From contig DUDT01000002.1 in assembly GCA_005110385.1 (NCBI GenBank), positions 27,854 through 91,853 on the forward strand: a stretch of DNA of 64,000 bases. The letters are read 5' to 3'. This DNA comes from Candidatus Melainabacteria bacterium (GTDB taxonomy: Bacteria; Cyanobacteriota; Vampirovibrionia; LMEP-6097). The translations under genes and the position numbers were made by a program. Position 1 is the stretch's first letter, and each line of letters begins with the position of its first letter. Under the pieces are notes generated by a model, which was not told the origin of the DNA, did not search any database, and worked only from the letters and a program-made list of their open reading frames with translations. This document shows, piece after piece, positions 18,732-64,000 of this stretch.

Positions 18732-19853
18732 TTATAAATACAACCCCTCTAAAAACTCTTTTGCAACACAGACCTTAACCCCAGACTCGATTCTAGATTT
18801 ACCCATATTTTTCACGATCTGAAAAGCCTTATAACCATAATGCTCTTTAAAATTTAAAAGACTTTTAGAAATATTTTTATCACTTAATTTCGCTTCTAAA
18901 ATATACTCTAGCTCACCTTTATTAGCCACCGCGAAATCGACTTCCAGCCCATCTTTCGTCCTAAGATAATGTAATTCTTTTTCTTCTGCAAGATAATCAT
19001 TCTCAGCATAAATACTTTTAAGTAAGCTCAAAGCCACAAGATTTTCAAAAGCCGCTCCCTCACTGTGACTTACTAGAGCAGTGTCAAAAAAATAAATCTT
19101 TGGTTCTTTTAAAATACTTCTTGCAATATTTTTAGAATAAGGGGTCACCCTGAAAATAATGTATAGAGCTTCTAATATCTCAATATACTTTTTAACTGTA
19201 TTCGATGAAATTTTTAAATCTTCTGCAAGTGAATTAAATGAAATACTAGAACCAACTCGCAGCCTTAACATATCAAAAAGCAGCCTCATAGCTTTGATAT
19301 TCTGAATCGGCTCTAAATCAAATACATCAGTAGTAAGTAAACCATTAACATATTGCTGCCTCCACCTGCTTGCTTCTAAATCATCATCCGCTAGAAAGGG
19401 TTCAGGGAAACCACTTCTAAGCATTAACTGACCTAAAGAGACGGTCTCATTTATCTTCCTAAACTCCGCTAAGGAAAAAGGCATTAACCTATGCCTAAAA
19501 TACCTACCAGCTAGTGAGTCACCTAACTTATCGAAGACCTCTAACCTTGCACTACCAGTAACCAATATGCGTGTCCCACTTTCTTTAGTATCGAAAACAC
19601 CTTTAATAAAATTTTTCCATTCTGGTTTTTTATGCAGCTCATCAAAAATAATCAAATCTAAATCCCTGTCCCAGATTTGCTTATCAATTATTTCCTTATC
19701 TTCTAAAGAATCGTAATTTAAATAAAGCGAATTGCTATAGGCTTTAGCAATTTTCTTAGCTAGCCATGTTTTACCAGACTGTCTTGGACCTACCAAAAAT
19801 ACCATTTTTTTCTCCAAGTCTTTTTTAATAGGATCTAGCTGAAAGCGTTTCAT
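18732..19853 (-). CDS. AAA+ ATPase, COG1373/DUF4143 family (paralog 2)
   Basis: 'MVFLVGPRQSGKTWLAK' and 'LIIFDELHK', with a DUF4143-like C-terminus. Confidence 0.75.
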   Translation of the reverse strand: MKRFQLDPIKKDLEKKMVFLVGPRQSGKTWLAKKIAKAYSNSLYLNYDSLEDKEIIDKQIWDRDLDLIIFDELHKKPEWKNFIKGVFDTKESGTRILVTGSARLEVFDKLGDSLAGRYFRHRLMPFSLAEFRKINETVSLGQLMLRSGFPEPFLADDDLEASRWRQQYVNGLLTTDVFDLEPIQNIKAMRLLFDMLRLRVGSSISFNSLAEDLKISSNTVKKYIEILEALYIIFRVTPYSKNIARSILKEPKIYFFDTALVSHSEGAAFENLVALSLLKSIYAENDYLAEEKELHYLRTKDGLEVDFAVANKGELEYILEAKLSDKNISKSLLNFKEHYGYKAFQIVKNMGKSRIESGVKVCVAKEFLEGLYL

Positions 19854-21508: not shown

Positions 21509-22798
21509 ATGTTCCCTAGAGAATTCTGGATCACAAAAATACAAAAAGCTTGGAGACTGAGGTCTATCATCTGGCTAGTCGGCGTAAGGCGTATAGGTAA
21601 AACCACCTTAGTAAAGTCATTATCTGAGGGTGATAAGGCGGGTAAAAACGCAAAAAATGGAATTGCGCATGGGTCTCTTCTGTATTATGACTGTGAGTTA
21701 AAAAGAAACCGTGATCTTATTGAAAGCGATGTAGAAGAATTTTGGCAGGGAAAAGAAAATAAGATCGTAATCCTAGACGAGATTCATCGTTTAGAAAATC
21801 CTTCTGAAGTCCTGAAAATAGCTGCTGATCATTATTCTAATGTTAAGGTGATAGCTACGGGCTCATCTACTCTAGCTGCTAGTAAAAAATTTAAAGACAC
21901 TCTAAGTGGACGAAAAATCGTCATAGAGCTAAGACCATTAATAGAAGCTGATCTTCTTGCTTTTGCTCAGAATAAAAATCCCAAAATAATAGAACCTATA
22001 AATGAGGATAACGAAAACGCAGAAATTGGAGTTCGGCAACAGTGCCATAATACACTTTTAGAAAAACGCTTTCTCTACGGTGGCATGCCCGAGAATTATC
22101 TCAGTGACGAACTGCCTGAATACGCCTTTGAAGAATGGATTGACTCTTACTGGTCTAAAGATATTCAAGAACTTTATGAGCTGCGTAGTAAATTTGCTTT
22201 TCAGAAATTTATGGAATTGCTCTTTATACAGAGTGGCGGAATCTTTGAAGCTAGTAAATTTGCCACTGACTGTAAAGTTAGTAGTCCGACTATTAGTAAT
22301 TTTTTACACGTACTAGAAGAAACCTTTGTTATAGATGTTCTTCGTCCTTATCATAAACGAAAAAATTCTGAAATCGTTTCAGCACCTAAGGTTTATGCTT
22401 TTGACACTGGGCTTGCTTGTTATTTAAAAGGCTGGTCATCACTCAGGAACGAGGATTTAGGTATATTCTGGGAACACTTCGTTTTAAATGAACTAAAAGC
22501 TCAGCTCCAAAACAATGCAGACATACTATACTGGCGAAACAAAAAAAAGCAAGAAGTCGACTTTATAATTAAGAAAAAACGCTCACAGACTGTTATAGCT
22601 ATAGAAACTAAATGGCAAGCTAAAAATTTCAGCCCAGACAATCTACAAGCTTTTCGTGAACTACATCCAGAAGGAGAGAATTTTCTTATCGCCAATGATA
22701 TCCAAGAATCATATACAAAAAACTATACTGACCTGAAAGTAAAATTCATTAGTTTAAGAGAATTTATCTTGCAGATTACTCTTGGCACAGCTCCTTGA
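21509..22798 (+). CDS. AAA+ ATPase, COG1373/DUF4143 family (paralog 3), carrying an in-frame repeat-element insertion
   Basis: 'WLVGVRRIGKTTLVK' and 'IVILDEIHR'. The inserted peptide is 'NEDNENAEIGVRQQCHN'. Confidence 0.75.
   Translation: MFPREFWITKIQKAWRLRSIIWLVGVRRIGKTTLVKSLSEGDKAGKNAKNGIAHGSLLYYDCELKRNRDLIESDVEEFWQGKENKIVILDEIHRLENPSEVLKIAADHYSNVKVIATGSSTLAASKKFKDTLSGRKIVIELRPLIEADLLAFAQNKNPKIIEPINEDNENAEIGVRQQCHNTLLEKRFLYGGMPENYLSDELPEYAFEEWIDSYWSKDIQELYELRSKFAFQKFMELLFIQSGGIFEASKFATDCKVSSPTISNFLHVLEETFVIDVLRPYHKRKNSEIVSAPKVYAFDTGLACYLKGWSSLRNEDLGIFWEHFVLNELKAQLQNNADILYWRNKKKQEVDFIIKKKRSQTVIAIETKWQAKNFSPDNLQAFRELHPEGENFLIANDIQESYTKNYTDLKVKFISLREFILQITLGTAP
22001..22051 (+). repeat. Dispersed in-frame repeat element copy (AATGAGGATAACGAAAACGCAGAAATTGGAGTTCGGCAACAGTGCCATAAT)
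   Basis: Shares 'AATGAGGAT.ACGAAAACGCAGAAATTGGAGTT' with 9356-9410, and 'EIGV.(Q/E)QC' with the guaA copy. Confidence 0.8.
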
Positions 22799-22973: not shown

Positions 22974-24278
22974 ATGGTCTTCAAAGTCAACGATATCAAA
23001 GAATTATTAGTATTGCAGATGAAGAGATTCTGCTCAGCAGAACTAAACGTCATCAGAGAAGATGCATTAAAACTAGTAGAAAAACACGTGAAAGCCCCTC
23101 AAGCAGTGGTTATTAGTGGCTTAAGAAGAGCTGGAAAATCTACATTTCTGCATCAAATCGCTCATAAATACTATGAAAAAAATGCTTACTACTATATTAA
23201 TTTTGATGATGATAGATTTTCAGACTTCACAGCTAGTGACTTTAACGCATTACTTGAAATTCTAATCGAACTATTTTCAGAAAGAAAAGTAATCTTTTTC
23301 GACGAAATCCAAAACATTGATAAGTGGGAAACCTTCTGTAGAAGGCTTATAGATAATGGTTTTAAACTTTACATCACTGGATCTAACGCTTCATTACTGA
23401 GTAAAGAGCTTGGTACTAGGCTTACAGGGCGTTATTTTCCATTAGAGCTTTTTCCTTTTAGCTTCGAGGAGTTTTTACGTTATCGAAAAATCGATATTAA
23501 AGAGATAATGAAAGAGAGCCGAAACGTTTTAGACACTAAGACACGAGCCTTATTAAAAAACAAGCTTAAAGAATATATTTTAAAAGGCTCTATCCCAGAG
23601 GCTTTAAGATATCCAGAGCTACCTGTATTAAAAAGCCTCTACCGAGATATTCTCTACCGAGATATAGCTACACGTTACAGAATAGAAGCTGATAGAACCC
23701 TGCGTGAGCTTTCTCTGCGAGTTTTCACTGATATTACTAGCCCTATACAGTTTTCTAAAATTAAACAGCAGCTCGGCATCGGTAATGTAACTACTGTCAC
23801 TAATTACATTTCATATTTAGAAAACTCTTGGTTAATTTTTGCTATAAATATCTTCGATATTTCGATTAAAAGGCAGCAAATCGCCCCTAAAAAAATCTAC
23901 GCCATAGATACAGGTCTAATACATGAGATAACTTTTAAATTTAAAGAAAAACAGGGAGTCCTATTAGAGAATCTAGTTTTTTTACATCTACGTAAAAAAT
24001 ATCAAGAGGTTTTTTACTATAAAACTAAATCTAACTATGAAGTAGATTTTTTCATTCCCGAAGCAGCTTTGCTAGTGCAGGTTTCTTACGACATTTCAGA
24101 TTTAGAAACCAAGGAAAGAGAAATTAGATCACTTATAGAAGCTAAATCTGAATTAGAGATGGATAAAAAATTTAAAATTAAAAAACTCCTAATAATAAAC
24201 TTCGAGCTTAAAGATCAGGAAAAAATCCAAAAAAATACTATAGAAATTATTCCAGCTTACGAGTTTTTACTTTCTTGA
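22974..24278 (+). CDS. AAA+ ATPase, COG1373/DUF4143 family (paralog 4)
   Basis: 'VVISGLRRAGKSTFL' and 'VIFFDEIQN', with a DUF4143-like C-terminus. Confidence 0.75.
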   Translation: MVFKVNDIKELLVLQMKRFCSAELNVIREDALKLVEKHVKAPQAVVISGLRRAGKSTFLHQIAHKYYEKNAYYYINFDDDRFSDFTASDFNALLEILIELFSERKVIFFDEIQNIDKWETFCRRLIDNGFKLYITGSNASLLSKELGTRLTGRYFPLELFPFSFEEFLRYRKIDIKEIMKESRNVLDTKTRALLKNKLKEYILKGSIPEALRYPELPVLKSLYRDILYRDIATRYRIEADRTLRELSLRVFTDITSPIQFSKIKQQLGIGNVTTVTNYISYLENSWLIFAINIFDISIKRQQIAPKKIYAIDTGLIHEITFKFKEKQGVLLENLVFLHLRKKYQEVFYYKTKSNYEVDFFIPEAALLVQVSYDISDLETKEREIRSLIEAKSELEMDKKFKIKKLLIINFELKDQEKIQKNTIEIIPAYEFLLS

Positions 24279-37799: not shown

Positions 37800-40700
37800 T
37801 TAAGTAATACTCGAATGTGAGCTTAACTGATTTAAAATCTTCTCCATCTCGGCATCAGGGTTTTTAACCCAATCTCTAGACCAGACTTTACAAACATTCC
37901 ACCCTAAAGACTGCATAACCTGCTTTCTAAGACGCTCTCTATCTCTAATACTTTTAGCGGATTTATAGAAGTAACCGTCAAGTTCTATGCCTAAACTGTA
38001 GTGTTCAGGGTTTTCTCTGTCCCTGACTGCCAAATCCACCTTATATGCTGAAGAGCCTAGGAATTGGTCTACTATAAAGCCCTTCGCCTCAAGTGCCTTC
38101 GCAATTATCTTATGTATATCACCACTTTCATTTAGTGAGGTTTTTAAATAAGCTTTCGCTGTACTTAAAAATTGCGTTTCAGCATATTTTAAATACTCCT
38201 TAAGCATTCGCACTCCTCTAGCGTTAGATCTGCTTAAATCTATATCTGCTGAATTAATTGAGCTAAAGATTTTAATTTTATTTCTCGCACGAGTAATAGC
38301 TACATTCAGCCTTCTATGACCACCTTCACGATTTAAAGGTCCGAAATTATGAGAAAGATTCCCTTTTTTATCACGAGCGTAGCCTACGCTAAAGAAAATA
38401 AAGTCTCTTTCATCACCCTGAACATTTTCCAAGTTCTTTATAAATAAATCATTTGCGATAATAGCTTCACTAATTTCAGCATCTTTTCTAAGAACATTTA
38501 ATAATTCTCTCTCTATGGCCATCTGCTGCGCTTCAGAAAAGGCGATAACTCCTAAAGTGTAATTTCTATATGGGCCAGAATAGTGATTAACAATAGCTTC
38601 AGCCACCGTCCTAGCTTCTTTCTTATTAAACCTAGCCCCCTTCTCAAATTTGCCATCTGGAACCAATTCAAAGTGAACCCCAAACTCCTCACTCTGCTTA
38701 ACTGGCGAAGGAAAAGTAATTAATTGACCATCGTAAATATAATGATTTGAAAATTGAATTAAATCCTCATGTTTACTTCTGTAATGCCAGACTAAATCCT
38801 TTTTCGGTAAAAATACTGCACACTCATCAAGTACACTTTCAAAATTTCTTTTCTCAGTATCATCGTCATCATCTTCTTCATTCGCAAAAGAATTAAAGAA
38901 ATTAGTCGGTGGTAACTGATTAGTATCTCCAGCTAAAATAAGCTGCTTGCCTCGATAAATAGCAGGTATCGCATCCTCAGTACGGATCTGCGAAGCCTCA
39001 TCAAATATAATTAAATCAAATCTAAAAGTCTTATCAATAAGCTCATTATCTATCTCTCCTTCAGTATTTAAAAGCTGACTTACTGAAAGAGGACTCATCA
39101 TCCAACAAGGCTTTAAAGTTTGTAAAAGATTAGGAATCTCACGAATTAAGACTCTAACTGGCTTATGTCTTTTCTTTTTATTAATTTCTAAATTAAAAAT
39201 ATCTAAAGCACGTTGGTTAATAGGATTAGCATAATATTCAAGCCAATTTAAAGCTAATCTCTCACAGAGTTTTCGTCTAACATTCTCTATCTGATCTTTA
39301 TCTAATTTTATAAACTTCTCAGTAAGCAGTGCCTGAGCAGAACCACTAAACTTACGAATATTCGGATTCTCTATCTCTATCTTATCTATCCATGACTGAT
39401 AGAACTTACTTAAGAAAATCTTTTCTAAAATCTCGCTACTAAAGTTATTTACACCTAGATCAGCACTATAAACCCCGTTGTATAAAGCTTCGCCATCGGT
39501 ATTAGAATTTACTATAGCTTCAAAAAGCTGACCTAAACCTAAATCTATAGCTCTATTTTTTAAATTTCTAAATTCCAGCCAGTCCTCTATCTGCACTATG
39601 TTTTTAATCAGATCATCAAAATGCTCATCAAATTCTTTAAAAGAAAGGTTTTCTATATCGACGTTAGGTACGGGAAAAAGCTTATAGTAAAAATCCACAT
39701 GCCCTTTAAATAATTCAAAAGCTTTCAGGAACTCATAAGCAGCTGTTTGAAAATTTTTAAAAGCTTCTTCATTATCACTCTCAGCTAAAATTTCAGCTAA
39801 ATTCTTAGGTAATTCATCTAACTCTAATTTTCCAATAATTTTCTTAACCCAGTTAATTGCTGTTAAAGTCTCTTGCCAGTTAGTATTATATTTTTTGTAA
39901 AAATTTCCCAGATTATAAGAGAGATCTGTATCCTGCTTCGCGAGCTGATCCTGCTTCTTATCTAATTCAGCAGCTTGCTCTAGATCTCTAATTAAAGAAT
40001 GTAAACCTTTAACTTGGTCATACAGGGCGAGTTCTTTAATACGCTTCATATCTTTCCAGTAATTTATATTTAAAAACCTGAAAATATTATCATCACTGTA
40101 ATCAGACCTAAATTTAGCTAAAAGATCAAAATGATCTAGATTTAAGAATTCACTACTATACTGACTGAGTAGATTTTCTTTTATAGAATAATATTCTTCA
40201 TATTTATCTTTAGCCTTAAGAGTAGCTGACTCTATTTCTTTAATCTTAGTCTTAGATAACCAGCTCTCCTGCGGGAATGGTGAATCTATAGCTAAGCGTG
40301 TCGCCTCAGCTAACCATTTAAGCTCATTTAAAGAATTTATTTTTCTATTGAAATACCTTTCAGCTATAGGACCAGCTAATTGAAATAGTTTCTGAGCAAG
40401 GCTTCTAGCTTCTATAAGATTAGATCTAATCTCATTTTCCAGTTCATAATTAATCTGTTCTATACGAACGTTACGCCAGATAAATTTATGATAATTATTT
40501 ATGATAAAAGACTTTCTACCGAAATCTTCAAAGAAAAATCTAAGATCATAAAGCTCTTTCTCGCCGATTCTTTCGATATTTCTAATAGTAAATTCAAGCT
40601 GCGGATAAGCTCTTAAATCCCAATTAATTAAACTTACTTTAGAATACAGCTGATAAAGAGAAAGATTAACGGGATATCTAACCTTATGAAACTCATTAAG

Positions 40701-42011
40701 GTTCTGGTCTAATTCCTCTTTTAGCCTATCTAATGGTTCTACATAAAGCTCTGGATCAGCTTTTAAAGCTAATTTTTTAACTTCCTCATTAGAGCTAGCC
40801 AGCTTCTGCATAATACTAGCTTTGCTCTGCTGTGAACCATGAAGATCTAAACAGAACTGATCGAGATTAGCTAATTTAAGCCTTTCATAGACTACATCTA
40901 GAGCTGCTTTCTTTTCACTAACGAATAATATTTTCTTGCCTTGGGCTAATGACTCAGAGATTATATTTGCGATAGTCTGTGATTTACCAGTACCAGGCGG
41001 TCCTTGCAAAACAAAGCTCTGCCCTTCCCTAGCACTATAAATCGCAGCCTGCTGGCTGCTGTCAGCATCTAGAATCTGAAAAGACTCTAGAGATTTATAT
41101 TTCTGATCTATATTTTCTGGCTTAACATCTGCATAATTCTGCGTCAGACTAAATGAGGTAGAGCTTAATCCATGCCCCGAAACCCTTTTAACAATCGGAT
41201 GCTCTTCTATAAGCTTCTGATTAGTCTCTAAATCCTGATACATAGAGAGCTTCGCAAAAGAAAAAAGACTTAGATAATTCTCGTCGACTAGTTTCCATGA
41301 TTTGGTAAGATCACCATACACATCTAATATTTTCTGTAACTCACTAAATAGCTCAGTTATTGGAAGATTTTCACTAATAATCTCTTCTAACTTATCTTCT
41401 AAAGGACTTAAATCAATAGCAAAATCTCTTTTAAATTTATAAGCGAGCGTAGGATTCACTCTGAGCTCATCTTGCAAAATTTCTAATCGATAAGAACCAC
41501 TGAGTCCCTTACGTGTCAAACAAGCTGGTACTAACAATACTGGTGATTCAAAGACCGAATCTTCATCCGAGGATTTATCCTGCCAGTGTAAAAAATTTAA
41601 AGCAACAAAAAGTATATTCACGCCCTGATCGCTAAGACTATCTCTAGAACGAGAACGCAGCCTAGATAACACTAGCTCAAGCTCTCTATCATCTTTATCT
41701 GTAAGTAAAATATTTGCCGTATCCTCATCTAATATCGTAGTAATACTCGACATATCGAAGATGCTCTCATCGAAAGCCATTTCATCTTCAGCTTCTAGCC
41801 CAAGTCCATCATCTAAGCTCTCTATCGGAGCTGCCTGCGGCTTAGATTTAAAACCTAAGTCCTTCTGTTCAAGAACAAATTTTCTGAAAACTTCTTCAGC
41901 TGATTCTATAAGATTTACAGAGGGGCCTAAATTTTTCTTAAAGTGCAGAAGTTTATTTCTGCGACTAAAATCTATTAGACTGTTTTTCCATCTGTCAAAA
42001 GAAATTGACAT
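37800..42011 (-). CDS. DUF4011-like N-terminal region, Upf1/DNA2-like SF1 helicase and C-terminal Vsr/DUF559-like PD-(D/E)xK nuclease-like domain (1403 aa)
   Basis: 'LQGPPGTGKSQTIANII' Walker A, 'LIIFDEASQI' Walker B, 'VAITRARNKIKIFSS' motif VI. The C-terminal end 'DLAV..E....LGIELDGYFYKS...DRERLRKQVMQSLGWNV' resembles a DUF559/Vsr fold. Confidence 0.7.
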   Translation of the reverse strand: MSISFDRWKNSLIDFSRRNKLLHFKKNLGPSVNLIESAEEVFRKFVLEQKDLGFKSKPQAAPIESLDDGLGLEAEDEMAFDESIFDMSSITTILDEDTANILLTDKDDRELELVLSRLRSRSRDSLSDQGVNILFVALNFLHWQDKSSDEDSVFESPVLLVPACLTRKGLSGSYRLEILQDELRVNPTLAYKFKRDFAIDLSPLEDKLEEIISENLPITELFSELQKILDVYGDLTKSWKLVDENYLSLFSFAKLSMYQDLETNQKLIEEHPIVKRVSGHGLSSTSFSLTQNYADVKPENIDQKYKSLESFQILDADSSQQAAIYSAREGQSFVLQGPPGTGKSQTIANIISESLAQGKKILFVSEKKAALDVVYERLKLANLDQFCLDLHGSQQSKASIMQKLASSNEEVKKLALKADPELYVEPLDRLKEELDQNLNEFHKVRYPVNLSLYQLYSKVSLINWDLRAYPQLEFTIRNIERIGEKELYDLRFFFEDFGRKSFIINNYHKFIWRNVRIEQINYELENEIRSNLIEARSLAQKLFQLAGPIAERYFNRKINSLNELKWLAEATRLAIDSPFPQESWLSKTKIKEIESATLKAKDKYEEYYSIKENLLSQYSSEFLNLDHFDLLAKFRSDYSDDNIFRFLNINYWKDMKRIKELALYDQVKGLHSLIRDLEQAAELDKKQDQLAKQDTDLSYNLGNFYKKYNTNWQETLTAINWVKKIIGKLELDELPKNLAEILAESDNEEAFKNFQTAAYEFLKAFELFKGHVDFYYKLFPVPNVDIENLSFKEFDEHFDDLIKNIVQIEDWLEFRNLKNRAIDLGLGQLFEAIVNSNTDGEALYNGVYSADLGVNNFSSEILEKIFLSKFYQSWIDKIEIENPNIRKFSGSAQALLTEKFIKLDKDQIENVRRKLCERLALNWLEYYANPINQRALDIFNLEINKKKRHKPVRVLIREIPNLLQTLKPCWMMSPLSVSQLLNTEGEIDNELIDKTFRFDLIIFDEASQIRTEDAIPAIYRGKQLILAGDTNQLPPTNFFNSFANEEDDDDDTEKRNFESVLDECAVFLPKKDLVWHYRSKHEDLIQFSNHYIYDGQLITFPSPVKQSEEFGVHFELVPDGKFEKGARFNKKEARTVAEAIVNHYSGPYRNYTLGVIAFSEAQQMAIERELLNVLRKDAEISEAIIANDLFIKNLENVQGDERDFIFFSVGYARDKKGNLSHNFGPLNREGGHRRLNVAITRARNKIKIFSSINSADIDLSRSNARGVRMLKEYLKYAETQFLSTAKAYLKTSLNESGDIHKIIAKALEAKGFIVDQFLGSSAYKVDLAVRDRENPEHYSLGIELDGYFYKSAKSIRDRERLRKQVMQSLGWNVCKVWSRDWVKNPDAEMEKILNQLSSHSSIT

Positions 42012-43083: not shown

Positions 43084-44280
43084 GTGATCAAAAGAGAAAT
43101 AGAAGGACATTTAGAAAGAATTTCCTCCCAATATCCCGTAATCACCCTAACTGGACCAAGACAGACGGGGAAAACTTTTCTTGCCAAAAATTATTTTAAA
43201 AATAAACCCTACTTTAATTTAGAAGATTTAGAGTTACGTGAATTCGCATTAAATGATCCAAAAGGATTTCTCGGTCAAATGAAAGATGGTGGCATCATAG
43301 ATGAAATACAGCATGTACCCGAATTAATATCCTACATCCAAGTCATAGTCGATAAACATAGAGATAAAAAAGCTCAATTTATTCTCACTGGCTCACAACA
43401 ATTCGCTTTAATGAAAAGCATTAGCCAATCTTTAGCAGGTAGAACCAGCGTTATAAACCTTTTACCATGTAGTATTCAAGAAATATATAATTCAAAACGT
43501 ACTAATGAAATAAAAGACTTTAAAACAGAAATCAATGATAAAAATTTCTTTATTTACTATGGCTTTTACCCTGCTATCTACAAAGATAAAATCAACCCTA
43601 GTCATTTCTATGCTGACTACGTAAAAACTTACCTCGAAAGAGACTTAAACCAGTTACAGCAAATTCAAAACATCAGCCTATTTAGAAAATTTCTACGCGC
43701 CTGTGCAAGCAGAATAGGGCAGGTTTTAAATAAAGAGAGCCTTGGTAATGATATAGGCATCGATGCTAGTACCGTAGAGAGATGGCTTACTGTTCTAGAA
43801 ACCAGTTACATACTGTTTCGTCTAGAGCCTTATTTCGCTAATATTAATAAGCGCCTGATTAAATCACCCAAATTATATTTTTATGACGTCGGCTTAGCCA
43901 CTTATCTACTAAATATCAAAAGCCAATCACAGATTGATACACACCCCCTAAAAGGGTATCTTTTTGAAAATATGATAGTTATGGAGTTTTTAAAATCTAG
44001 ATTCAATCAAGGAAAAAATAATAATCTGAATTTTTATCGCGATAAAACTAAAGAAGTGGATCTCATAATGCGTGAGTCAGCTCATTTTACAGCTGTGGAG
44101 ATTAAATATGCAGAAACCATAAAAAATAATCTCTGGGAATCTTTAGACTATGTTTCTAAACTCTTCCCGAAAGAGTGTAATAAAAGAATCTTAGTTTATG
44201 GTGGAGCTGAAGAGCAGAATAGGACTGGGTTAAGAGTGATTCCATTTAATGAAGTTGGCAATCAAAATTCTGACAGCTAA
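43084..44280 (+). CDS. AAA+ ATPase, COG1373/DUF4143 family (paralog 5). The likely GTG start aligns with paralog 1 ('IKREIEGHL' vs 'IKREVQIDKL'). The ORF track starts at a TTG at 43027.
   Basis: 'ITLTGPRQTGKTFLAK' and 'GGIIDEIQH', with a DUF4143-like C-terminus. Confidence 0.7.
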   Translation: MIKREIEGHLERISSQYPVITLTGPRQTGKTFLAKNYFKNKPYFNLEDLELREFALNDPKGFLGQMKDGGIIDEIQHVPELISYIQVIVDKHRDKKAQFILTGSQQFALMKSISQSLAGRTSVINLLPCSIQEIYNSKRTNEIKDFKTEINDKNFFIYYGFYPAIYKDKINPSHFYADYVKTYLERDLNQLQQIQNISLFRKFLRACASRIGQVLNKESLGNDIGIDASTVERWLTVLETSYILFRLEPYFANINKRLIKSPKLYFYDVGLATYLLNIKSQSQIDTHPLKGYLFENMIVMEFLKSRFNQGKNNNLNFYRDKTKEVDLIMRESAHFTAVEIKYAETIKNNLWESLDYVSKLFPKECNKRILVYGGAEEQNRTGLRVIPFNEVGNQNSDS

Positions 44281-50594: not shown

Positions 50595-52943
50595 TTATGG
50601 TAGCAAGTCGACAGCTTTTCGGGGATTAGCAATCTGTATATTAATATTACTAGCGTTAAAATAACCACCCAAATTTAAATCAACAGCTGATTTTCTATCT
50701 TTTAAGATATTCATCTTATCGTCAATTCTACCTAAAGAGTTCGAAACTCTCTTGACCATGGACTTAAGACTGGCTTCCATGCGTATTAGATTAGATTCTA
50801 TTTGATCAATATCCACTAAAGACTGGTCATTAACTAAACCTGTCGAACCTCCTAGGGATGCGACATTAGTTGATACTGTGAGATTATTTAATGCACTAGA
50901 AGATTTAGCTCCGAGAGTCGCGGATTTAGTAGCGCCAGTATTTATATCTAAACCGTTAGTAGGTGCGCCTAAAATAGAAGAAAAATCATATTCTTGAATC
51001 GTAGTACCTGAAACTCCTTGATAGAGCTTCTCACCAGCCGCAGCATGATAATTAATACCATCAGCCTTAGTCACAAACTCACCAGTAGTAATATCAAAAA
51101 CATAAGTAGCACCTCCATTCACTGCAGTAGAATCATCATAACGAGCGTGAATAATAGCATTAGTTCCATCTAACTTAACTTTATAGCCAAAATCATCTTG
51201 CCTATCAAGATCCAATCCCTGAGCTGCTAATGTAGCCTTATCAAAACTTCTAATATAACCTTCTGAACTTGTAGAACTAATCGCATTAGTCGCAGTAGTT
51301 TCTGCTTGACTAACAGTCTGCCCAGCTGTAATAGCAGCGTTATAAACGGCGTCATACTCTGTCATCAGTTTATCTATATCATAAACATGTACTGCTCCAC
51401 CGAAACCTTCAATTCCTCCGCCATTATTCTGAATAGTATTCCAAGTAGCGGCATCCACGTATCCGTCTGCTGTAGATACACCAATCATAGTAAGACCCGA
51501 GTGAACAGCAGCCACGTACCCACCTGATTCACCAACAATTAGCTGATTACCCTGAGCATAAACACTGTGCCCAAAAGACTTAAAAGAAGCTTGATTTGAC
51601 GATTTAAGGGTTCTTACAGTTTCAGTATTCCTGTCAATAAGCGTAACTCTACCATCACGGGTAAAACCTGGGTTACCGCTCCAACCAGTCCCTACTATTA
51701 TGTAATCATCAGTGACCTGAAAAGCATCTGTTGACCAGATATCTATATCAATACCAGTAGAATCATACTGCTTAACGAAAGTGCCGTCTAAAGTAAATTC
51801 CTGTATTCCTCCTACAGCTAAGGCCCCCTGTCCGCCAGGACGGTTATCCTGTCCAAGATTTCCAGCTCGGTTCTGTTGAGCAATAAATACGCTATTACCC
51901 TTAATTTTCACAGCTTCACCAAAGGAGCTATATTTATTTACACTACTAAGATTAGTGCTAACATCATTTTCACTTCTCAGACCAAGATCAACTAAAGGAT
52001 TTTTAGCAGCTAAAGCATCCTTCGTAAAAGAAGTAATTAAATTTCCAGAAGGAATATCATAAAGGAAAGCTCCCCCCGAAAAATCCCTATCATACTCAGG
52101 CCAATCATTATTCCCGTCTCCATTGGGATCCCAGTAACCTTGAATTCTCGTCCCGATCAAAATATTATCTCCATCTACACTTACCGCATAACCGAATCTT
52201 TCATTATCTATGCTTGTAAGCGGAGATTTAATCTCTCGAATTAAATTTTTAGTTACTGCATCATAAATCTGCACACTGCCGTTATTACCGAAATCTATAG
52301 GATTGGCCTCTCCATTAGCATCATTCTGAGTAGAAGCCACTATATATTTAGAATCAGAATAAAGCACTTGAAGGCTATTTTCATGATCATTAATAGGCGT
52401 CAAGGAAGCTGTAACCGCAAGTGGTCGACTAATGTCAGAGGCTCTAGTGAAATCTACAGTTAAGGTCGAATTACCAGATAAGTCTTCTTGTAGCTGCTGT
52501 TTAAAAGCTCCATCAAAAATTTTCTTTCCACCTACAGTAGTGGTACTCACGAGTCTATTTATCCCAGCGACTAATTCATTAATCTCTTCCTGTGCGTCAT
52601 CTAAGGCCGTACCAGTTAAAGTACCATCATGAGCAGACTTTAGTAAAGACTTAATTTCTCCAACTTTACCCTTAATACTATTAAAATTATCTTGGGCTGC
52701 TTGATATTCAACTAAATCATTACTCACAGATTCCCTGATACTAGAATAATTTTTATATTGATAAGCTGCATTTTTACTTGCTATGACATTCGAAATATTG
52801 TAATCATCATTAGTATACTGCTGCACAAAACCACTAATAGTGGTTTTTAAAACAGACTGCTTGACCTTAGAATCCAGATTGTTTATAAGTCCAGTCTGAT
52901 CTATGACGTGAATGTTGCGCCCATTAAGACGTGCATATCGCAT
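50595..52943 (-). CDS. Flagellin/FlgL-family protein (N- and C-terminal helical domains) with a central FG-GAP beta-propeller-like repeat region. 782 aa.
   Basis: N-terminal 'DGTLTGTALDDAQEEINELVAGINRLVSTTTVGGKKIFDG' resembles the FlgL/flagellin D1 region ending '..FNG/FAG'. C-terminal '...RMEASLKSMVKRVSNSLGRIDDK' is flagellin_C-like. The middle carries repeated 'FGYAVSVDGDNILIG', 'FGEAVKIKGNSVFIA', 'FGHSVYAQGNQLIVG' and 'DPNGDGNND'. Confidence 0.5.
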   Translation of the reverse strand: MRYARLNGRNIHVIDQTGLINNLDSKVKQSVLKTTISGFVQQYTNDDYNISNVIASKNAAYQYKNYSSIRESVSNDLVEYQAAQDNFNSIKGKVGEIKSLLKSAHDGTLTGTALDDAQEEINELVAGINRLVSTTTVGGKKIFDGAFKQQLQEDLSGNSTLTVDFTRASDISRPLAVTASLTPINDHENSLQVLYSDSKYIVASTQNDANGEANPIDFGNNGSVQIYDAVTKNLIREIKSPLTSIDNERFGYAVSVDGDNILIGTRIQGYWDPNGDGNNDWPEYDRDFSGGAFLYDIPSGNLITSFTKDALAAKNPLVDLGLRSENDVSTNLSSVNKYSSFGEAVKIKGNSVFIAQQNRAGNLGQDNRPGGQGALAVGGIQEFTLDGTFVKQYDSTGIDIDIWSTDAFQVTDDYIIVGTGWSGNPGFTRDGRVTLIDRNTETVRTLKSSNQASFKSFGHSVYAQGNQLIVGESGGYVAAVHSGLTMIGVSTADGYVDAATWNTIQNNGGGIEGFGGAVHVYDIDKLMTEYDAVYNAAITAGQTVSQAETTATNAISSTSSEGYIRSFDKATLAAQGLDLDRQDDFGYKVKLDGTNAIIHARYDDSTAVNGGATYVFDITTGEFVTKADGINYHAAAGEKLYQGVSGTTIQEYDFSSILGAPTNGLDINTGATKSATLGAKSSSALNNLTVSTNVASLGGSTGLVNDQSLVDIDQIESNLIRMEASLKSMVKRVSNSLGRIDDKMNILKDRKSAVDLNLGGYFNASNINIQIANPRKAVDLLP

Positions 52944-53165
52944 AAATTACTCCCCCAGAGGCTCATAATGCTATTCAAGCTCACAATACTGATCCATTAG
53001 TAGTACCTTTCTCAGATAATATTATCCTTTAGTTAAAAAACTGATATTCAAGTCCATTTTCTTCAAAAGTACTAAAAAATTATTAAAGTAGCTTAGTACT
53101 GAATGTTAAAATCTTTAGTATAAAGTGGTCTAATTAAATTAAGATCATATTTTCTATAAACTTCT

Positions 53166-53918
53166 ATGAGTAAAACAGTTAAATTCTCAGTAAAAAGACA
53201 GGACGAACCGAGTTCTAAGCCATACTTAGATGAGTTCGAAGTTCCATATGAGGAGGGCATGAACGTCACGACCTTGTTAATGGCGACTAGGCAGTTTCCT
53301 ACCACTTGTGATGGTAAAGCTACTACACCAGTGTCATTTGAAAGTGCTTGTTTAGAGGAAGTCTGCGGTTCTTGTACTATGATAGTTAACGGAAAAGTAA
53401 GACAGGCTTGTACCGCTCTTGTAGACAAGCTTTCTCAGCCGATTAAATTAGAACCTATGACTAAATTCCCAGTCAGAAGAGACCTAGTCGTCGATAGATC
53501 GCAGATGTTTAAGGCTCTTAAAAAAGTAAAAGCCTGGATAGAAATAGACGGTGTCTATGACTTAGGCGAAGGACCTAAAGTCTACCCTCATGAACAAGAA
53601 AAGAATTACGTGCTTAGTAGATGTATGACCTGTGGCTGCTGCTTAGAAGCCTGTCCGCAGTGGACTAATGATTTAGAGTTTATCGGCCCTCAAGCGATTT
53701 CTCAAGCTGTATTATTTAACAGCCACCCTAACGGCGTTAGCACTAAAGGTGACAGAATAGAAGCCTTAGTAGATAATGGTTTAAATAACTGTGGTAACGC
53801 ACAGAACTGTGTAAAAGCCTGCCCTAAAGAGATTCCTCTTACTGATAGTATCGCTAGAGCGAATAGGGAAGCCACTGTTTATACGGTTGAAAAATGGTTA
53901 ATCGACGCAGTAAGCTAG
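53166..53918 (+). CDS. sdhB: Succinate dehydrogenase / fumarate reductase iron-sulfur subunit. No sdhA/C/D are adjacent.
   Basis: 2Fe-2S 'CLEEVCGSCTMIVNG', 4Fe-4S 'CMTCGCCLEACP' and 3Fe-4S 'CGNAQNCVKACP'. Confidence 0.8.
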   Translation: MSKTVKFSVKRQDEPSSKPYLDEFEVPYEEGMNVTTLLMATRQFPTTCDGKATTPVSFESACLEEVCGSCTMIVNGKVRQACTALVDKLSQPIKLEPMTKFPVRRDLVVDRSQMFKALKKVKAWIEIDGVYDLGEGPKVYPHEQEKNYVLSRCMTCGCCLEACPQWTNDLEFIGPQAISQAVLFNSHPNGVSTKGDRIEALVDNGLNNCGNAQNCVKACPKEIPLTDSIARANREATVYTVEKWLIDAVS

Positions 53919-54733
53919 ATAAATTTCAGACTTCGCTGTTCTTTATATTTCCATGGTTTTTTGGGTTTCTCTGTTTTTTCCTAGGGCCTTTACTCGCGAG
54001 TCTCTGCCTATCTTTCACTAATTATGATGGCTTAAATATTCCCGACTTTATCGGGCTTACGAATTATTCTAGGCTTCTTAGCGATGATAGCCTTTATACC
54101 TCTTTACGAGTGACTCTCAGTTTCGCTATCATGAATCTCTCTCTAGGAACTATAGTTGCTATCGCTCTAGCTATACTCTTAAATCAAGAAGATATAAAAG
54201 GCTCTAGCTTTTTCCGCACACTATTCTATATTCCGACTATCATTCCTATTGTCGCTTCTAGTGTTACCTGGATATGGTTATTTAAAAAAATTCACACTCC
54301 TAGCCTTCTCTCAGATGAAAACTTAGCGCTGCCAGCTTTAGTTATAATTAGCCTCTGGTCATTAGGAAACCCTATGCTGATCTACTTAGCAGGGCTTAAA
54401 AATATCCCGACCTATCTTTATGAATCTGCTGAAATCGACTCTGCAAGCGAATGGCAGAAATTCTGGCATATCACCTTACCTTCACTGAGCCCAGTCATAC
54501 TATTTAATGTCGTTATAGGTATCATCCAAGTCTTTCAATATTTCGTCCCAGCTTATGTTATGACCTCTGGTGGACCTAAAAATGCGACTCTTTTCTATTC
54601 ATTGTACATATATCAAAAAGCCTTCGAGGATTTCGAAATGGGCTATGCGAGTGCCTTAGCGTGGGTTTTATTTTTAATTATTACGGGTTTTACTTATCTC
54701 GCTTTTCGAGTTTTACCAAAATCGGAGCATTAA
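53894..54733 (+). CDS. Carbohydrate ABC transporter permease (MalF/UgpA type) with no partner ABC genes nearby
   Basis: EAA motif region 'YESAEIDSASEWQKFWHITLPSLSPVI'. Six TM helices. Confidence 0.7.
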   Translation: MVNRRSKLDKFQTSLFFIFPWFFGFLCFFLGPLLASLCLSFTNYDGLNIPDFIGLTNYSRLLSDDSLYTSLRVTLSFAIMNLSLGTIVAIALAILLNQEDIKGSSFFRTLFYIPTIIPIVASSVTWIWLFKKIHTPSLLSDENLALPALVIISLWSLGNPMLIYLAGLKNIPTYLYESAEIDSASEWQKFWHITLPSLSPVILFNVVIGIIQVFQYFVPAYVMTSGGPKNATLFYSLYIYQKAFEDFEMGYASALAWVLFLIITGFTYLAFRVLPKSEH

Positions 54734-60380: not shown

Positions 60381-60587
60381 ATGCTGTTATCTATTTTCAT
60401 AAAACAAAAAAGAAAAATCGCTAAACTCACGCAAATAGAACTCGCGGAGAAAGCTGGAGTGGGCTTAAGATTTCTTAGAGATTTAGAGCAGGGTAAAGAA
60501 ACTTTAAGGTTAGATAAGGTAAATCAAGTACTGAGTTTATTTGGTTATGAAATGGGACCAGTTAAGTCTCAGCTAGGTGATAGTTAG
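60381..60587 (+). CDS. hipB: XRE-family HTH protein (HipB-like)
   Basis: 'LTQIELAEKAGVGLRFLRDLEQGK' is an HTH_XRE motif. First gene of the three-gene operon. Confidence 0.55.
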   Translation: MLLSIFIKQKRKIAKLTQIELAEKAGVGLRFLRDLEQGKETLRLDKVNQVLSLFGYEMGPVKSQLGDS

Positions 60588-60915
60588 AATGAGAAAAGCT
60601 GAGGTCTTAATGCACGAGGAACTTGCAGGCTGGCTAAGTCAAGATGAGCTGGGATATCACTTTCAGTATGCAGAAGAGTACCTTAAGTCAGAAAACCCTG
60701 TACCAATAAGCTTTACACTACCGATTAAAAAAGAAGCCTTTAACAGCTCTGTGTTATTTCCTTTTTTTGATGGGTTGATACCCGAAGGTTGGCTTTTAAA
60801 TATAGCTGAAAAAAACTGGAAACTTAAGCCTAGAGATCGCATGGGCTTGTTAATGGCTTGCTGCCTGGATTGTATTGGGGCGGTGAGTATTAATCCATTA
60901 ATAGAAGAATCATGA
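60577..60915 (+). CDS. hipS: HipA N-terminal subdomain-like protein (HipS-like)
   Basis: 'LPIKKEAFNSSVLFPFFDGLIPEGW' matches the HipA_N motif (..FF.NLLPEG). Its stop overlaps the next start (ATGA). Confidence 0.55.
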   Translation: MIVRMRKAEVLMHEELAGWLSQDELGYHFQYAEEYLKSENPVPISFTLPIKKEAFNSSVLFPFFDGLIPEGWLLNIAEKNWKLKPRDRMGLLMACCLDCIGAVSINPLIEES

Positions 60916-61859
60916 GTAATCGCTGCTTATACTGCTATTTAGCTTTAGCTGACGGTGAAATTGATTTTCATCCGAGCTGTAGTAAAAAAATATTTGGAAC
61001 TGCTGTTCCGCCTCTAATGCCTTATTCAGAAGAGAATCTAGATGAACTAGCTGAGCAAATTATCCAGTCACAGACCACTGTAACTGGAGTTCAGCCGAAA
61101 CTATCTCTACATTTAGCCTCGGCAGAAAATCCAAATCAAGTCAAACGTTTTACTATAGTAGGAATGTGGGGAAATTATATTTTAAAACCAGCATCACCAC
61201 ACTATCCTGAATTAGCAGAGATAGAGGATTTGACTATGCACCTCGCTGAGATCGCTAAGATTAAAACAGTACCTCATAGCTTAATTCGCTTATCCTCAGG
61301 TAATCTTGCGTATATTACTAAAAGAATTGATAGATGGAAAGGGGGGAAGCTCCATATGGAAGATATGTGTCAGCTCACTGAAAGGCTTACAGAAGATAAA
61401 TACCAAGGTTCTTACGAGCAGATCGCTAAAGCAATTTTAAAATATTCTGTAAATCCAGGACTTGATTTAGTTAATTTCGCGGAATTGATTTTATTTTCAT
61501 TTATAACTGGAAACGCTGATATGCACCTGAAAAATTTCTCTTTAATTTACCAAAGAGATACGGGGCCTGTGTTTTCACCTGCTTATGATTTACTCTCTAC
61601 AGTCTTAGTAAATCCTAATGATGACGAAGACTTAGCTTTAACTCTTAGTGGCAAAAAGAAAAAAATTAATTGTGATGATTTTAATAAAGCTTTTAATACC
61701 ATGGGCTTAGAGGGAAAACAGCAGAAAAATATTTTTAAGAAAATGGAGAAAGCTCTACCTAAATGGTGTGAATTTATAGAGCTGAGTTTTTTAAGTAGGG
61801 AGATGAAAGGTGCTTATGTAAAGCTGTTGGAGGAGAGGTTTGGGCGTTTGGGGTGTTGA
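60912..61859 (+). CDS. hipT: HipA C-terminal-like Ser/Thr kinase (HipT-like toxin)
   Basis: 'VTGVQPKLSL' and 'GNADMHLKNFSL' are the HipA signature motifs (GVQPKFS and DDHLKNFS). Confidence 0.7.
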   Translation: MSNRCLYCYLALADGEIDFHPSCSKKIFGTAVPPLMPYSEENLDELAEQIIQSQTTVTGVQPKLSLHLASAENPNQVKRFTIVGMWGNYILKPASPHYPELAEIEDLTMHLAEIAKIKTVPHSLIRLSSGNLAYITKRIDRWKGGKLHMEDMCQLTERLTEDKYQGSYEQIAKAILKYSVNPGLDLVNFAELILFSFITGNADMHLKNFSLIYQRDTGPVFSPAYDLLSTVLVNPNDDEDLALTLSGKKKKINCDDFNKAFNTMGLEGKQQKNIFKKMEKALPKWCEFIELSFLSREMKGAYVKLLEERFGRLGC

Positions 61860-61960: not shown

Positions 61961-64000
61961 TTAAGCTACTGAAAGCCCAGCCATAAGCTGCTCTTTCTCT
62001 GGGTGAGCAGCAATAAGACTTTCTTCACTATCCACCACAGCATCAAAGCCTGAACCAGATGGGATAAGACGTCCGATAATAACGTTCTCTTTAAGACCGT
62101 GTAACCAATCCGTTTTACCTTTAATCGAAGCTTCTGCAAGAATTCTAGTAGTCTCTTGGAAAGAAGCTGCTGATATAAAGCTCTCCGTATTTAAGCTAGC
62201 CTTAGTTAAACCAAGTAGAACGTGTTTGTATTGAGCAGTAATCTTACCTTCTTCCTCAGCTGCTTTATTAATAGTTCTTACATAATTAATATCATGTAAT
62301 TCACCTTGAAGAAGCTCAGTATCACCGGGATCATCGATTCTTACTTTACGAGTCATCTGTCTAACTATAGTCTCAATGTGTTTGTTTGCAATTTCAACAC
62401 CTTGAGAGACATATACTGACTGAACTTCATCGACTAAGAACTGTTGTAAATGCTCTACACCCTTATACTCAAGAAGATCATGCGGATTAGGCTGACCATC
62501 TGTAAGAAGGTCTCCTACGTTAATCTTATCACCATCATTAACGACGATGTTCTGACCAACAGGAATAACGAACTCTTTACGCTCATCCGCAGTTTTAATA
62601 AATATAGTCTCAGCACCATCTTCATTAAGAACTTCAGCGACACCAGATACATCAGAAATAATCGCTGGCTCTTTAGGCTTTCTACCTTCAAGTAATTCTT
62701 CTACTTTCGGAAGACCCTGAACTATGTCACCAGTCTTAACTTTCTCATAAATAATAGTAGCGAGCTGATCACCCTGCTGAACTAAAGAATGGTTATCGAC
62801 GTGTAATCTAGTACCAGAGCTTACAAGGAAAGGACGCGCCTTTCTAATCACGACTGTGTTTCCTTTCACTTCCGTTACTATACCTGGCTCCTCAAGCGGC
62901 TCTGAATTACCTATCGAATCACCTTTAAGAACGTAGTCCCCTGCTTTAACTTTAGGAGCGACCTTAGAAGTAACAGTAAAACTAGAAGCATCATCTAGAA
63001 TTAGGATTCTAGATTTATCTACTTGATTTACGAAAACCTCACCAGAAGTCTGTGCAATAGACTGAACTTTTGCTACAGCTTGATTAGCTTCAACAAAGTC
63101 ACCTGGCTGAACAAGAATCTCAGTAATAGTAGATGATGTTCTCTCAGACCTTAGAATAATATTTTCTTGGAAAATAATATTTAATGTCTCAGCTTCAGTA
63201 TCGAATTCTACGATTCCCTTAGAATCTTGGTATTGATCTTCACAAGACAGTATCAAACTAGTCTTAGTGAGTGCTCCACCATTAAAGTTACGAACTTTAT
63301 CACCGTCTCTGTAATGCATTTGCGTTACAGGGTAAATATTAATCGCAGCATCAGTAGTTTCAGCGGTAAACTCGACTTCACGTGGCTTAATATCATACAG
63401 CTGAACATCTCTAAGCAGGAGCTTAGTTTCACCAGTTTCTTCATGACTAAAGAGAGTAATCATACTTGGCTTAGTAGTCTTAACCTTAGGCATAATCTCT
63501 ACACCTTCTTTAACGATGTCTCCATCAGCATACTTAAGAAGCTCTGGATCTTCTATGTCGAAAAGCTGTCCAGGAGTCACTGTTACTTCATGAATAATAT
63601 TATTTTCAATAGTAACTCTAACTATACCGTCAATATTCGCATAAACGTCTTTAACAACTTCCGTTCCAGCTTTAACGTGAGTACCAGTCTCAATTATCGC
63701 AAGACTTGCATCTTTAGAAAGAGAATGAATCTCCTCTGGAATAAAAATTACTCTTCCATGCTTAGTAACAATCTTTCTATCATCTATTTCTAGATCATCG
63801 TATCTGATTTCACCCGAGCAAGGTAAGTGTAGTGAAAGCTCGTCATCAACAAGCTCTGCTAATATCTTACCATTCTCAATGGTCTCACCATTTACCATCT
63901 TAAGAACATACTTTTCATTAGCAAGAACCCAAAGATTACCTTGTTGATTCTGCTGTAATTTAGCATTAGAAGAACCTATCGAAGCGTTAATTACATTAAG
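61961..64000 (-). CDS. rpoC: DNA-directed RNA polymerase beta' subunit, C-terminal part. The gene continues beyond the window end.
   Basis: 'GLKENVIIGRLIPSGSG' near the C-terminus. The frame remains open from 63898 to 64000. Confidence 0.85.
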   Translation of the reverse strand, partial: LNVINASIGSSNAKLQQNQQGNLWVLANEKYVLKMVNGETIENGKILAELVDDELSLHLPCSGEIRYDDLEIDDRKIVTKHGRVIFIPEEIHSLSKDASLAIIETGTHVKAGTEVVKDVYANIDGIVRVTIENNIIHEVTVTPGQLFDIEDPELLKYADGDIVKEGVEIMPKVKTTKPSMITLFSHEETGETKLLLRDVQLYDIKPREVEFTAETTDAAINIYPVTQMHYRDGDKVRNFNGGALTKTSLILSCEDQYQDSKGIVEFDTEAETLNIIFQENIILRSERTSSTITEILVQPGDFVEANQAVAKVQSIAQTSGEVFVNQVDKSRILILDDASSFTVTSKVAPKVKAGDYVLKGDSIGNSEPLEEPGIVTEVKGNTVVIRKARPFLVSSGTRLHVDNHSLVQQGDQLATIIYEKVKTGDIVQGLPKVEELLEGRKPKEPAIISDVSGVAEVLNEDGAETIFIKTADERKEFVIPVGQNIVVNDGDKINVGDLLTDGQPNPHDLLEYKGVEHLQQFLVDEVQSVYVSQGVEIANKHIETIVRQMTRKVRIDDPGDTELLQGELHDINYVRTINKAAEEEGKITAQYKHVLLGLTKASLNTESFISAASFQETTRILAEASIKGKTDWLHGLKENVIIGRLIPSGSGFDAVVDSEESLIAAHPEKEQLMAGLSVA

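Follow-up and report, generated by a model that had tools for sequence, protein, structure and literature searches.

A flagellin-superfamily protein with a predicted integrin-type FG-GAP propeller from low-GC Vampirovibrionia

This report concerns one protein-coding gene in a stretch of 64,000 nucleotides of contig DUDT01000002.1 (assembly GCA_005110385.1, Candidatus Melainabacteria bacterium), referred to below in its whole length as the window, which has a guanine plus cytosine (GC) content of 37%. The list of open reading frames places a frame of 782 codons plus stop, beginning with ATG, on the minus strand at positions 50595 to 52943, exactly where an earlier note made from the letters alone had put a flagellin/FlgL-family protein with an FG-GAP repeat array at its centre. 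In the product an integrin-type FG-GAP propeller with seven blades is set between the N-terminus of a flagellin and a C-terminus that is helical but divergent. Profile hidden Markov models (HMMs), a profile search of the PDB, two AlphaFold models and Foldseek concur in this architecture, which we regard as secure. The gene and its parts, in order along the protein, are listed here (pLDDT, predicted local distance difference test).

50595 to 52943, minus strand: complete coding sequence (782 amino acids plus stop) of the flagellin-superfamily protein with a propeller insert
52797 to 52943, minus strand: ND0-like segment, residues 1-49; profile alignments to solved flagellins begin at position 4-7; no signal peptide
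52419 to 52796, minus strand: ND1 helical domain, residues 50-175 (Flagellin_N, PDB profile, hhalign, DSSP)
50979 to 52418, minus strand: predicted seven-bladed FG-GAP beta-propeller, residues 176-655 (FG-GAP_2, blade HMM, two models, Foldseek)
52104 to 52130, minus strand: calcium-type loop DPNGDGNND, residues 272-280, in blade 2; single occurrence by regex scan
51225 to 51452, minus strand: insertion in blade 5, residues 498-573, with a helical hairpin at 523-556; close subfamily only
50829 to 50978, minus strand: linker, residues 656-705, conserved (mean pairwise identity 0.77), with a pLDDT of about 30-50
50670 to 50828, minus strand: long C-terminal helix, residues 706-758, in the position of flagellin CD1 (DSSP, both models)
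50598 to 50669, minus strand: short CD0-like tail, residues 759-782, ending in ...LLP, with L781 and P782 invariant and a within-family identity of 0.83

The Pfam family Flagellin_N scores 27.5 bits in the window protein, over profile positions 72-137 only (Pfam cutoff 26.6), and 29-44 bits in seven relatives. A search of the PDB with a profile of six diverse family members (E<=0.01) returned 48 distinct sequences, all of them filament flagellins and none of them FlgL or FlgK. The first among these was the flagellin homologue of Sphingomonas A1, at E=1e-12 with the profile and E=1e-4 with the single sequence, and several of the flagellin alignments are colinear from profile position 4-7 to about 160-165, spanning both ND0 and ND1. 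In a local hhalign comparison the N-terminal family profile matched E. coli FliC with 90.7% probability (residues 64-167 against 59-162), against 21% for FlgL, 3% for FlgK and 0.3% for FliD, while NCBIfam gave far-sub-threshold matches only, to two flagellin models. In both AlphaFold models DSSP assigns residues 50-105 and 112-134 to helices and 136-141 to a beta-hairpin after them, a layout that we read as the topology of flagellin D1; the D0 segments have a pLDDT below 50 in both. Judged from these sequence comparisons, the N-terminal 175 residues are a true flagellin D0/D1, of flagellin type rather than FlgL type.

The same evidence bears on the name FlgL, under which the earlier note had also placed the protein. 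In favour of an FlgL into which a domain was inserted, this protein of the hook-filament junction (HAP3) shares the Flagellin_N fold, some FlgL proteins do carry insertions, and the automatic name given by JGI is "flagellin-like hook-associated protein FlgL", which we take to be a name applied to the orthologous group COG1344 at large. With FliC so far ahead of FlgL and FlgK in hhalign, however, the label is unsupported. The weak NCBIfam matches are to flagellin models only, the 48 PDB matches are filament flagellins without exception, flgK is not adjacent in any context examined, and the tandem duplication found in one relative is typical of flagellins rather than of FlgL. The FlgL identity was rejected on the hhalign, PDB and context evidence, and we consider it quite improbable.

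Still further from the data is the proposal that there is no kinship with flagellin at all, the gene encoding a coiled-coil and propeller protein with a convergent N-terminus, or being a fusion or assembly artefact. It could appeal to the window protein's bare passage of the Flagellin_N cutoff over half of the profile, but the family profile reaches E=1e-12 in a colinear match of about 160 residues that includes the D1 beta-hairpin, and this proposal seems to us scarcely credible. The protein recurs without a single change on nine or more independent metagenome contigs (JGI, ENA, Logan), so the gene is not an assembly artefact; more widely, it is intact on dozens of independent contigs (JGI, ENA, Logan, NCBI) with the same architecture in two subfamilies, and the assembly or fusion artefact was rejected for that reason.

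For residues 176-655 the predicted fold is an FG-GAP propeller with seven blades, of the kind found in integrin alpha. FG-GAP_2 (PF14312) scores 47.7 bits over three stretches of the window protein (Pfam cutoff 23), in which no WD40 Pfam match was found. The two AlphaFold models, for which 13 and 18 sequences were used (mean pLDDT 67.8 and 68.6, predicted template-modelling score 0.61 and 0.64), have an identical strand pattern of seven four-stranded blades, at about 192-239, 248-307, 339-394, 408-447, 455-567, 585-628 and 634-653, with strand 176-181 completing the last blade in a velcro closure. The best Foldseek matches in the PDB are integrin alpha heads, 5ffg_A for the first model (E=2.6e-8) and 8oxz_P for the second (E=7.6e-10), for which such heads occupy ranks 1-14; solved flagellar filaments (9au6, 9n59, 7sn4) are matched as well. 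The structure prediction that the earlier note had proposed as a check speaks for the architecture it described, both models placing a propeller and, after it, a C-terminal helix in the flagellin position.

By sequence, a blade HMM recognises four blades only, starting near residues 248, 337, 455 and 580. It gives three further matches of at least 4 bits, and none of at least 5 bits arose in 50 shuffles; the remaining three blades are visible in the structure prediction only. Of the earlier description of an FG-GAP/integrin-alpha-like centre with at least five "FGxxV...DxNGDGxxD" repeats, the propeller is borne out by FG-GAP_2, the models and Foldseek, and the repeat count is not, with four sequence blades and a single DxNGDG. 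Integrin-like multi-site calcium binding was rejected, as DPNGDGNND is the only such loop and it is not conserved in the three full-length proteins of the distant subfamily described below (P0083, P0096 and P0142). The insertion in blade 5, which reaches a pLDDT of 90-97 over residues 520-570 in both models, is absent from that subfamily of 669-687 residues. No catalytic family was recognised in the insert by Pfam or NCBIfam.

For the C-terminal part both models predict a long helix of 53 residues (706-758) with a short one at the end, and R721, M722, R732 and R739 in the long helix are invariant across subfamilies. An alignment with FliC made by eye, weak and manual rather than statistical, pairs "SL..R" with "SLGAVQNR" and "IANPRKAVDLLP" with "AKANQVPQQVLSLLQG"; in it the CD0-like tail is about 13 residues shorter than CD0 of E. 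coli FliC. A divergent homology of the helix and the ...LLP end to flagellin CD1/CD0 is possible.

A word-indexed homologue search recovered 13 clusters, all with at least 54% identity and all from metagenomes or metagenome-assembled genomes (MAGs), carrying either no annotation or the JGI name given above. The distant subfamily was recovered only by an exhaustive profile search of representatives with the central domain alone, and not by a word-indexed search with the wide-family alignment. Most matches of the central-domain profile are generic multi-repeat FG-GAP proteins in which one blade is aligned repeatedly; five proteins align colinearly from about their own residue 175, three of them at full length. 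These three, P0083 (669 residues), P0096 (671) and P0142 (687), are 30-36% identical to the window protein and carry Flagellin_N (38-44 bits), FG-GAP_2 and the ...LLP end. P0096 is NCBI MCH2227558.1, from a Candidatus Caenarcaniphilales MAG. All family loci have 34-38% GC, and the family, with its two subfamilies, is thus an invention of low-GC Vampirovibrionia. Scans of the GTDB species representatives with the single protein and with the family alignment gave no relative; no family locus was found with the wide-family alignment among JGI metagenome and IMG/VR contigs, collections evidently without the relevant samples. In one homologue (P0003) the start was called too late, since the in-frame upstream DNA encodes "MGYIGRIHTVDQAALM", which agrees with the extension at the N-terminus of the window protein. 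Gene calling has therefore shortened several family entries of 760-762 residues at their N-termini.

The host assignment agrees with the neighbouring genes. NCBI MEB3315709.1, whose label reads "MAG: Candidatus Melainabacteria bacterium", has the same sequence as the SmpB encoded beside the target gene, and members of the same 90% clusters as neighbouring proteins bear the labels "Vampirovibrionia bacterium" and "Cyanobacteria bacterium REEB446" (MBU6196024.1). Just past the right edge of the window lie rpoB, a 645-residue rpoC1 and a 1232-residue rpoC2 (window 61961-64000, minus strand, and beyond), and such a split RNA polymerase beta-prime subunit is the arrangement characteristic of Cyanobacteriota. 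A frame of 645 residues at the window edge, taken as rpoC1-sized, was rejected as rpoC1; it is rpoC2 truncated at the window end.

The smpB and fabG genes and an sdhB-like gene with Fer2_3 and Fer4 domains flank the target, as the earlier note had stated. In the close subfamily the order is a divergent sdhB-like gene, the target, and then smpB-fabG-acpP-hemL-guaA-guaB on the same strand. The arrangement persists in relatives with as little as 54% protein identity, and one relative has two tandem paralogs of the target. In the distant subfamily the gene follows rplY-DUF327-putA, or adjoins phoD and a transposase. The region upstream of the target is shared with the sdhB-like gene.

52944 to 53165, no strand: divergent intergenic region shared with the sdhB-like gene; upstream regions of six family genes were compared

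A strong Shine-Dalgarno sequence, GGGGGAG, lies at about 52950-52956 on the minus strand, and strong G-rich Shine-Dalgarno sequences precede all family genes, which is unusual in such AT-rich DNA. Scans for sigma-70 promoters and terminators performed at chance level. In the search for sigma-28 (FliA) promoters a site resembling TCAA-N13-GCGATAA was seen in one of the six family genes, the others having GGATAA, GAATAA or AAATAA there, although this consensus may not be that of the host.

The rate of evolution was compared in three congeneric genomes, the target being set against nine neighbouring genes in the same genome pairs. The nine neighbours are 91-100% identical, with a ratio of nonsynonymous to synonymous rates (dN/dS) of 0-0.16, whereas the target is 76-88% identical with a dN/dS of 0.31-0.38, and its dN is 4-15 times that of the neighbours. 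By region, dN/dS is 0.27-0.45 in the N-terminus, 0.36-0.46 in the propeller and 0.15-0.32 in the C-terminus. This rapid evolution of the whole protein, putative core helices included, fits an exposed surface protein.

We read the product as a divergent flagellin of a low-GC, Caenarcaniphilales-like bacterium, a genuine protein of the flagellar filament with an adhesive propeller as its outer domain, and give this reading a probability of roughly one half. In place of the variable outer domain that usually separates ND1 from CD1 there would be the FG-GAP propeller of about 480 residues. As in flagellins, the insert lies between ND1 and the C-terminal helix, cysteines are few or missing (0-2 per protein in 18 family members), and a signal peptide is lacking; neither a signal peptide nor a transmembrane segment was found in the window protein (maximum 19-residue hydropathy 1.0). 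The low pI, the strong Shine-Dalgarno sequence and the tandem paralogs of one relative are further traits that flagellins commonly show. Because a Sec signal is missing and the flagellin-type N-terminus is kept across deep divergence, the protein would be exported through the flagellar type III gate by means of that N-terminus. The terminal helices would then build the core of a filament, or failing that a coiled coil anchored at the surface. The propeller, with a pI of 4.4 (4.7 for the whole protein), would be displayed outside; being acidic, fast-evolving and structurally conserved, it may be an exposed ligand-binding module of lectin or adhesin kind, plausibly attaching to algal or cyanobacterial cells or to particles. 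An attachment role would accord with the epibiotic way of life of cultured Vampirovibrio.

A considerable body of observations weighs against a filament protein, and much of it would be expected if the flagellin had been repurposed, that is, if a lineage without motility flagella, or with a reduced export apparatus, used it as a secreted or surface-anchored adhesin or fibre whose C-terminal D1/D0 has been remodelled. Foremost is the C-terminus. Flagellin_C (PF00700) was matched in none of 8 full-length members and in none of five isolated C-terminal fragments even at E<=10, in a run where E. coli FliC, the positive control, scored 110.8 bits, and hhalign of the family C-terminal profile against FliC gave a probability of 1%; the defining C-terminal feature of flagellins is thus missing by sequence. 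Of the two termini that the earlier note had matched to flagellin, the N-terminal one stands (E=1e-12) and the C-terminal one does not, and the HMM scan it proposed as a check returned Flagellin_N and FG-GAP_2 and left Flagellin_C, half of the flagellin pair, without a hit. The tail itself is short, truncated with respect to CD0, and contains G, N and P residues.

Constraint on the putative core is likewise relaxed. ND0 is the least conserved region, its identity falling from 0.60 inside the close subfamily to 0.20 when the subfamilies are compared, and the dN/dS of ND1 is unlike that of a tightly packed filament core. Rapid evolution of the whole protein does not match such a constrained core well. 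The propeller is conserved like ND1 (within the subfamily 0.71 for the propeller and 0.79 for ND1, between subfamilies 0.33 and 0.34) and is not hypervariable. Such a pattern of domain identities would be unlike that of an ordinary flagellin.

The genomic setting points in the same direction. As the earlier note had observed, no flagellar genes are nearby, none being found in about 84 kb, made up of the 64-kb window and some 10 kb past either end; none stood beside the family gene in four distinct genomic contexts, and NCBIfam revealed no cryptic flagellar components among ten unannotated neighbours. The gene lies among housekeeping genes, no conserved sigma-28 site was found upstream of the six family genes with a consensus that may not be the host's, and no terminator was found between the target and smpB, with which it may be co-transcribed. 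NCBI names P0096 "hypothetical protein". Many Vampirovibrionia, furthermore, retain a flagellar subset for which a role in secretion has been suggested (bioRxiv 10.64898/2026.04.24.720558; PMC4040986).

Against repurposing, the flagellin-type N-terminus, ND0 included, is colinear across subfamilies only 30-36% identical, which argues for continued selection on export or assembly, and the invariant ...LLP terminus resembles the ends of flagellins. Flagellin genes lie far from other flagellar genes in many bacteria, so context is weak evidence. We hold repurposing to be a serious rival, with the odds somewhat against it. A related proposal is that a low-GC branch of the non-photosynthetic cyanobacteria has turned the flagellin fold into a surface organelle that does not serve motility, in which an integrin-like propeller adhesin has kept its N-terminus for a reduced type III gate, has had its C-terminal polymerisation domain replaced, and evolves rapidly under pressure from prey, host or phage; we give it about the same odds.

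The choice between a filament-displayed adhesin and a repurposed flagellin fold, the two possibilities raised in the earlier note, depends on the flagellar apparatus of the lineage, on which the literature for Caenarcaniphilales is contradictory. Flagella were inferred to be ancestral in Melainabacteria and repeatedly lost, flagellar genes being shared by Gastranaerophilales and Caenarcaniphilales (PMC4040986), and a review tabulates the type genome of Caenarcaniphilales as flagella-negative (PMC9029806), a further point against a filament. Most Gastranaerophilales keep a flagellar subset only (flhB, fliI, flgG), possibly for secretion (2026 preprint, bioRxiv 10.64898/2026.04.24.720558).

A 2026 comment in ISME J argues that the "jumbo phage" PhiMa05 is bacterial (PMC13623518). 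The record "Microcystis phage MaAM05/PhiMa05" (MW495066.1) proved to be a fragment of a Vampirovibrionales chromosome, with ribosomal-protein operons, aminoacyl-tRNA synthetases and 54% GC. It carries fliA, cheB, motAB and fliLMY, and a contig of 2.87 Mb encodes a protein with 99% identity to its FliM; both gene content and FliM match support the bacterial origin argued for it. As a proxy for the apparatus of the host PhiMa05 was rejected, being without the target gene, of 54% GC and only 39% identical in the shared speH. Its FliM homologues belong to higher-GC Vampirovibrionales, the best low-GC candidate contig in a screen by amino-acid composition having 48% GC.

The window encodes a PilT-like T2SSE ATPase (10318-11382, minus strand), and some 6 kb past its left end stands an N_methyl gene (type IV pilin-like). 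Type IV pili are thus probable in this organism, be it flagellated or not.

Other features of the window are recorded here for completeness. At 53166-54733 (plus strand) the sdhB-like gene is followed by an overlapping lone ABC-type permease (BPD_transp_1), whose start differs between gene callers (200 or 279 residues), and by no other succinate dehydrogenase genes; given this lone permease in their place, "sdhB" may be a misnomer. A hipBA-type toxin-antitoxin module (HTH, Couple_hipA, HipA_C) at about 60470-61859 (plus strand) is shared with one relative lineage and missing from another otherwise syntenic one, a strain-level indel. No tRNA or Rfam features were found in the window. Five paralogous AAA_14/DUF4143 ATPase genes within 28 kb form an unusual local expansion, and two long reading frames complete the list.

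16337 to 17476, plus strand: AAA_14/DUF4143 ATPase (Pfam)
18732 to 19853, minus strand: AAA_14/DUF4143 ATPase (Pfam)
21509 to 22798, plus strand: AAA_14/DUF4143 ATPase (Pfam)
22974 to 24278, plus strand: AAA_14/DUF4143 ATPase (Pfam)
43084 to 44280, plus strand: AAA_14/DUF4143 ATPase (Pfam)
1245 to 4622, minus strand: frame of 1125 residues with no Pfam or NCBIfam match
37800 to 42011, minus strand: DUF4011/AAA_11/AAA_12/MTES_1575 helicase-like protein of 1403 residues

The outer domains of flagellins are now regarded as a large reservoir, still mostly unexplored, of surface functions such as adhesion, enzymatic activity and filament mechanics. If the propeller is displayed on a filament, each flagellum would bear thousands of copies of a potential lectin, an obvious attachment device that would matter in a group whose cultured relatives prey on algae. 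If the lineage is without flagella, the gene would be a clean case of a flagellin recruited to a new role, with a bearing on the purpose of the "remnant" flagellar genes in many Vampirovibrionia genomes. As the fastest-evolving gene of its neighbourhood, it also marks an interaction surface worth study in abundant uncultured freshwater bacteria.

The outer domains of flagellins have been sorted into 682 structural clusters, among them a predicted WD40 propeller cluster, #55 (Fields et al. 2024, PMC11532411). The precedent for propeller outer domains thus consists of predictions only. A fusion of an FG-GAP integrin-type propeller into a flagellin was not found described in the searchable literature, and we know of no propeller outer domain with an experimental structure. 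With the flagellins of large outer domain (giant flagellins, that of Geovibrio thiophilus in 9au6, and cluster #55; PMC11532411) the window protein has in common the layout of ND0-ND1, globular insert and C-terminal helix, an acidic surface, almost no cysteine, no signal peptide and, for 9au6, a similar size (792 against 782 residues). It differs from them in failing Flagellin_C, in an outer domain conserved like D1 rather than hypervariable, and in a gene that lies among housekeeping genes without a sigma-28 promoter. From cluster #55, compared by its description, it differs in that the propeller is of FG-GAP/integrin-alpha and not of WD40 type. Flagellinolysin-type enzymatic flagellins, as summarised in PMC11532411 from Eckhard et al. 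(2017), likewise display on the filament a conserved functional domain set in the variable region; there the insert is a metallopeptidase, here a propeller without a recognisable catalytic family.

To the head of integrin alpha (8oxz_P, 4wk0_A, 5ffg_A) the likeness lies in the FG-GAP repeats, the seven blades and the best structural match over residues 176-655, with a TM score of up to 0.53 as normalised to the 449-residue target. Sequence identity is about 12-13%. Where integrins have several calcium-type loops the window protein has one DxNGDG loop, which is not conserved; its blade 5 contains a helical hairpin, a beta-subunit partner is missing, and the propeller is set between flagellin helices. 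Finally, the Sphingomonas sp. A1 flagellin homologue p5 (3k8w, 3k8v, 2zbi) is the best solved match to the N-terminal domain. It differs from the window protein in having a canonical C-terminal domain, a small outer domain and no propeller; described as a flagellin homologue at the cell surface involved in alginate binding, p5 is a precedent for a ligand-binding flagellin.

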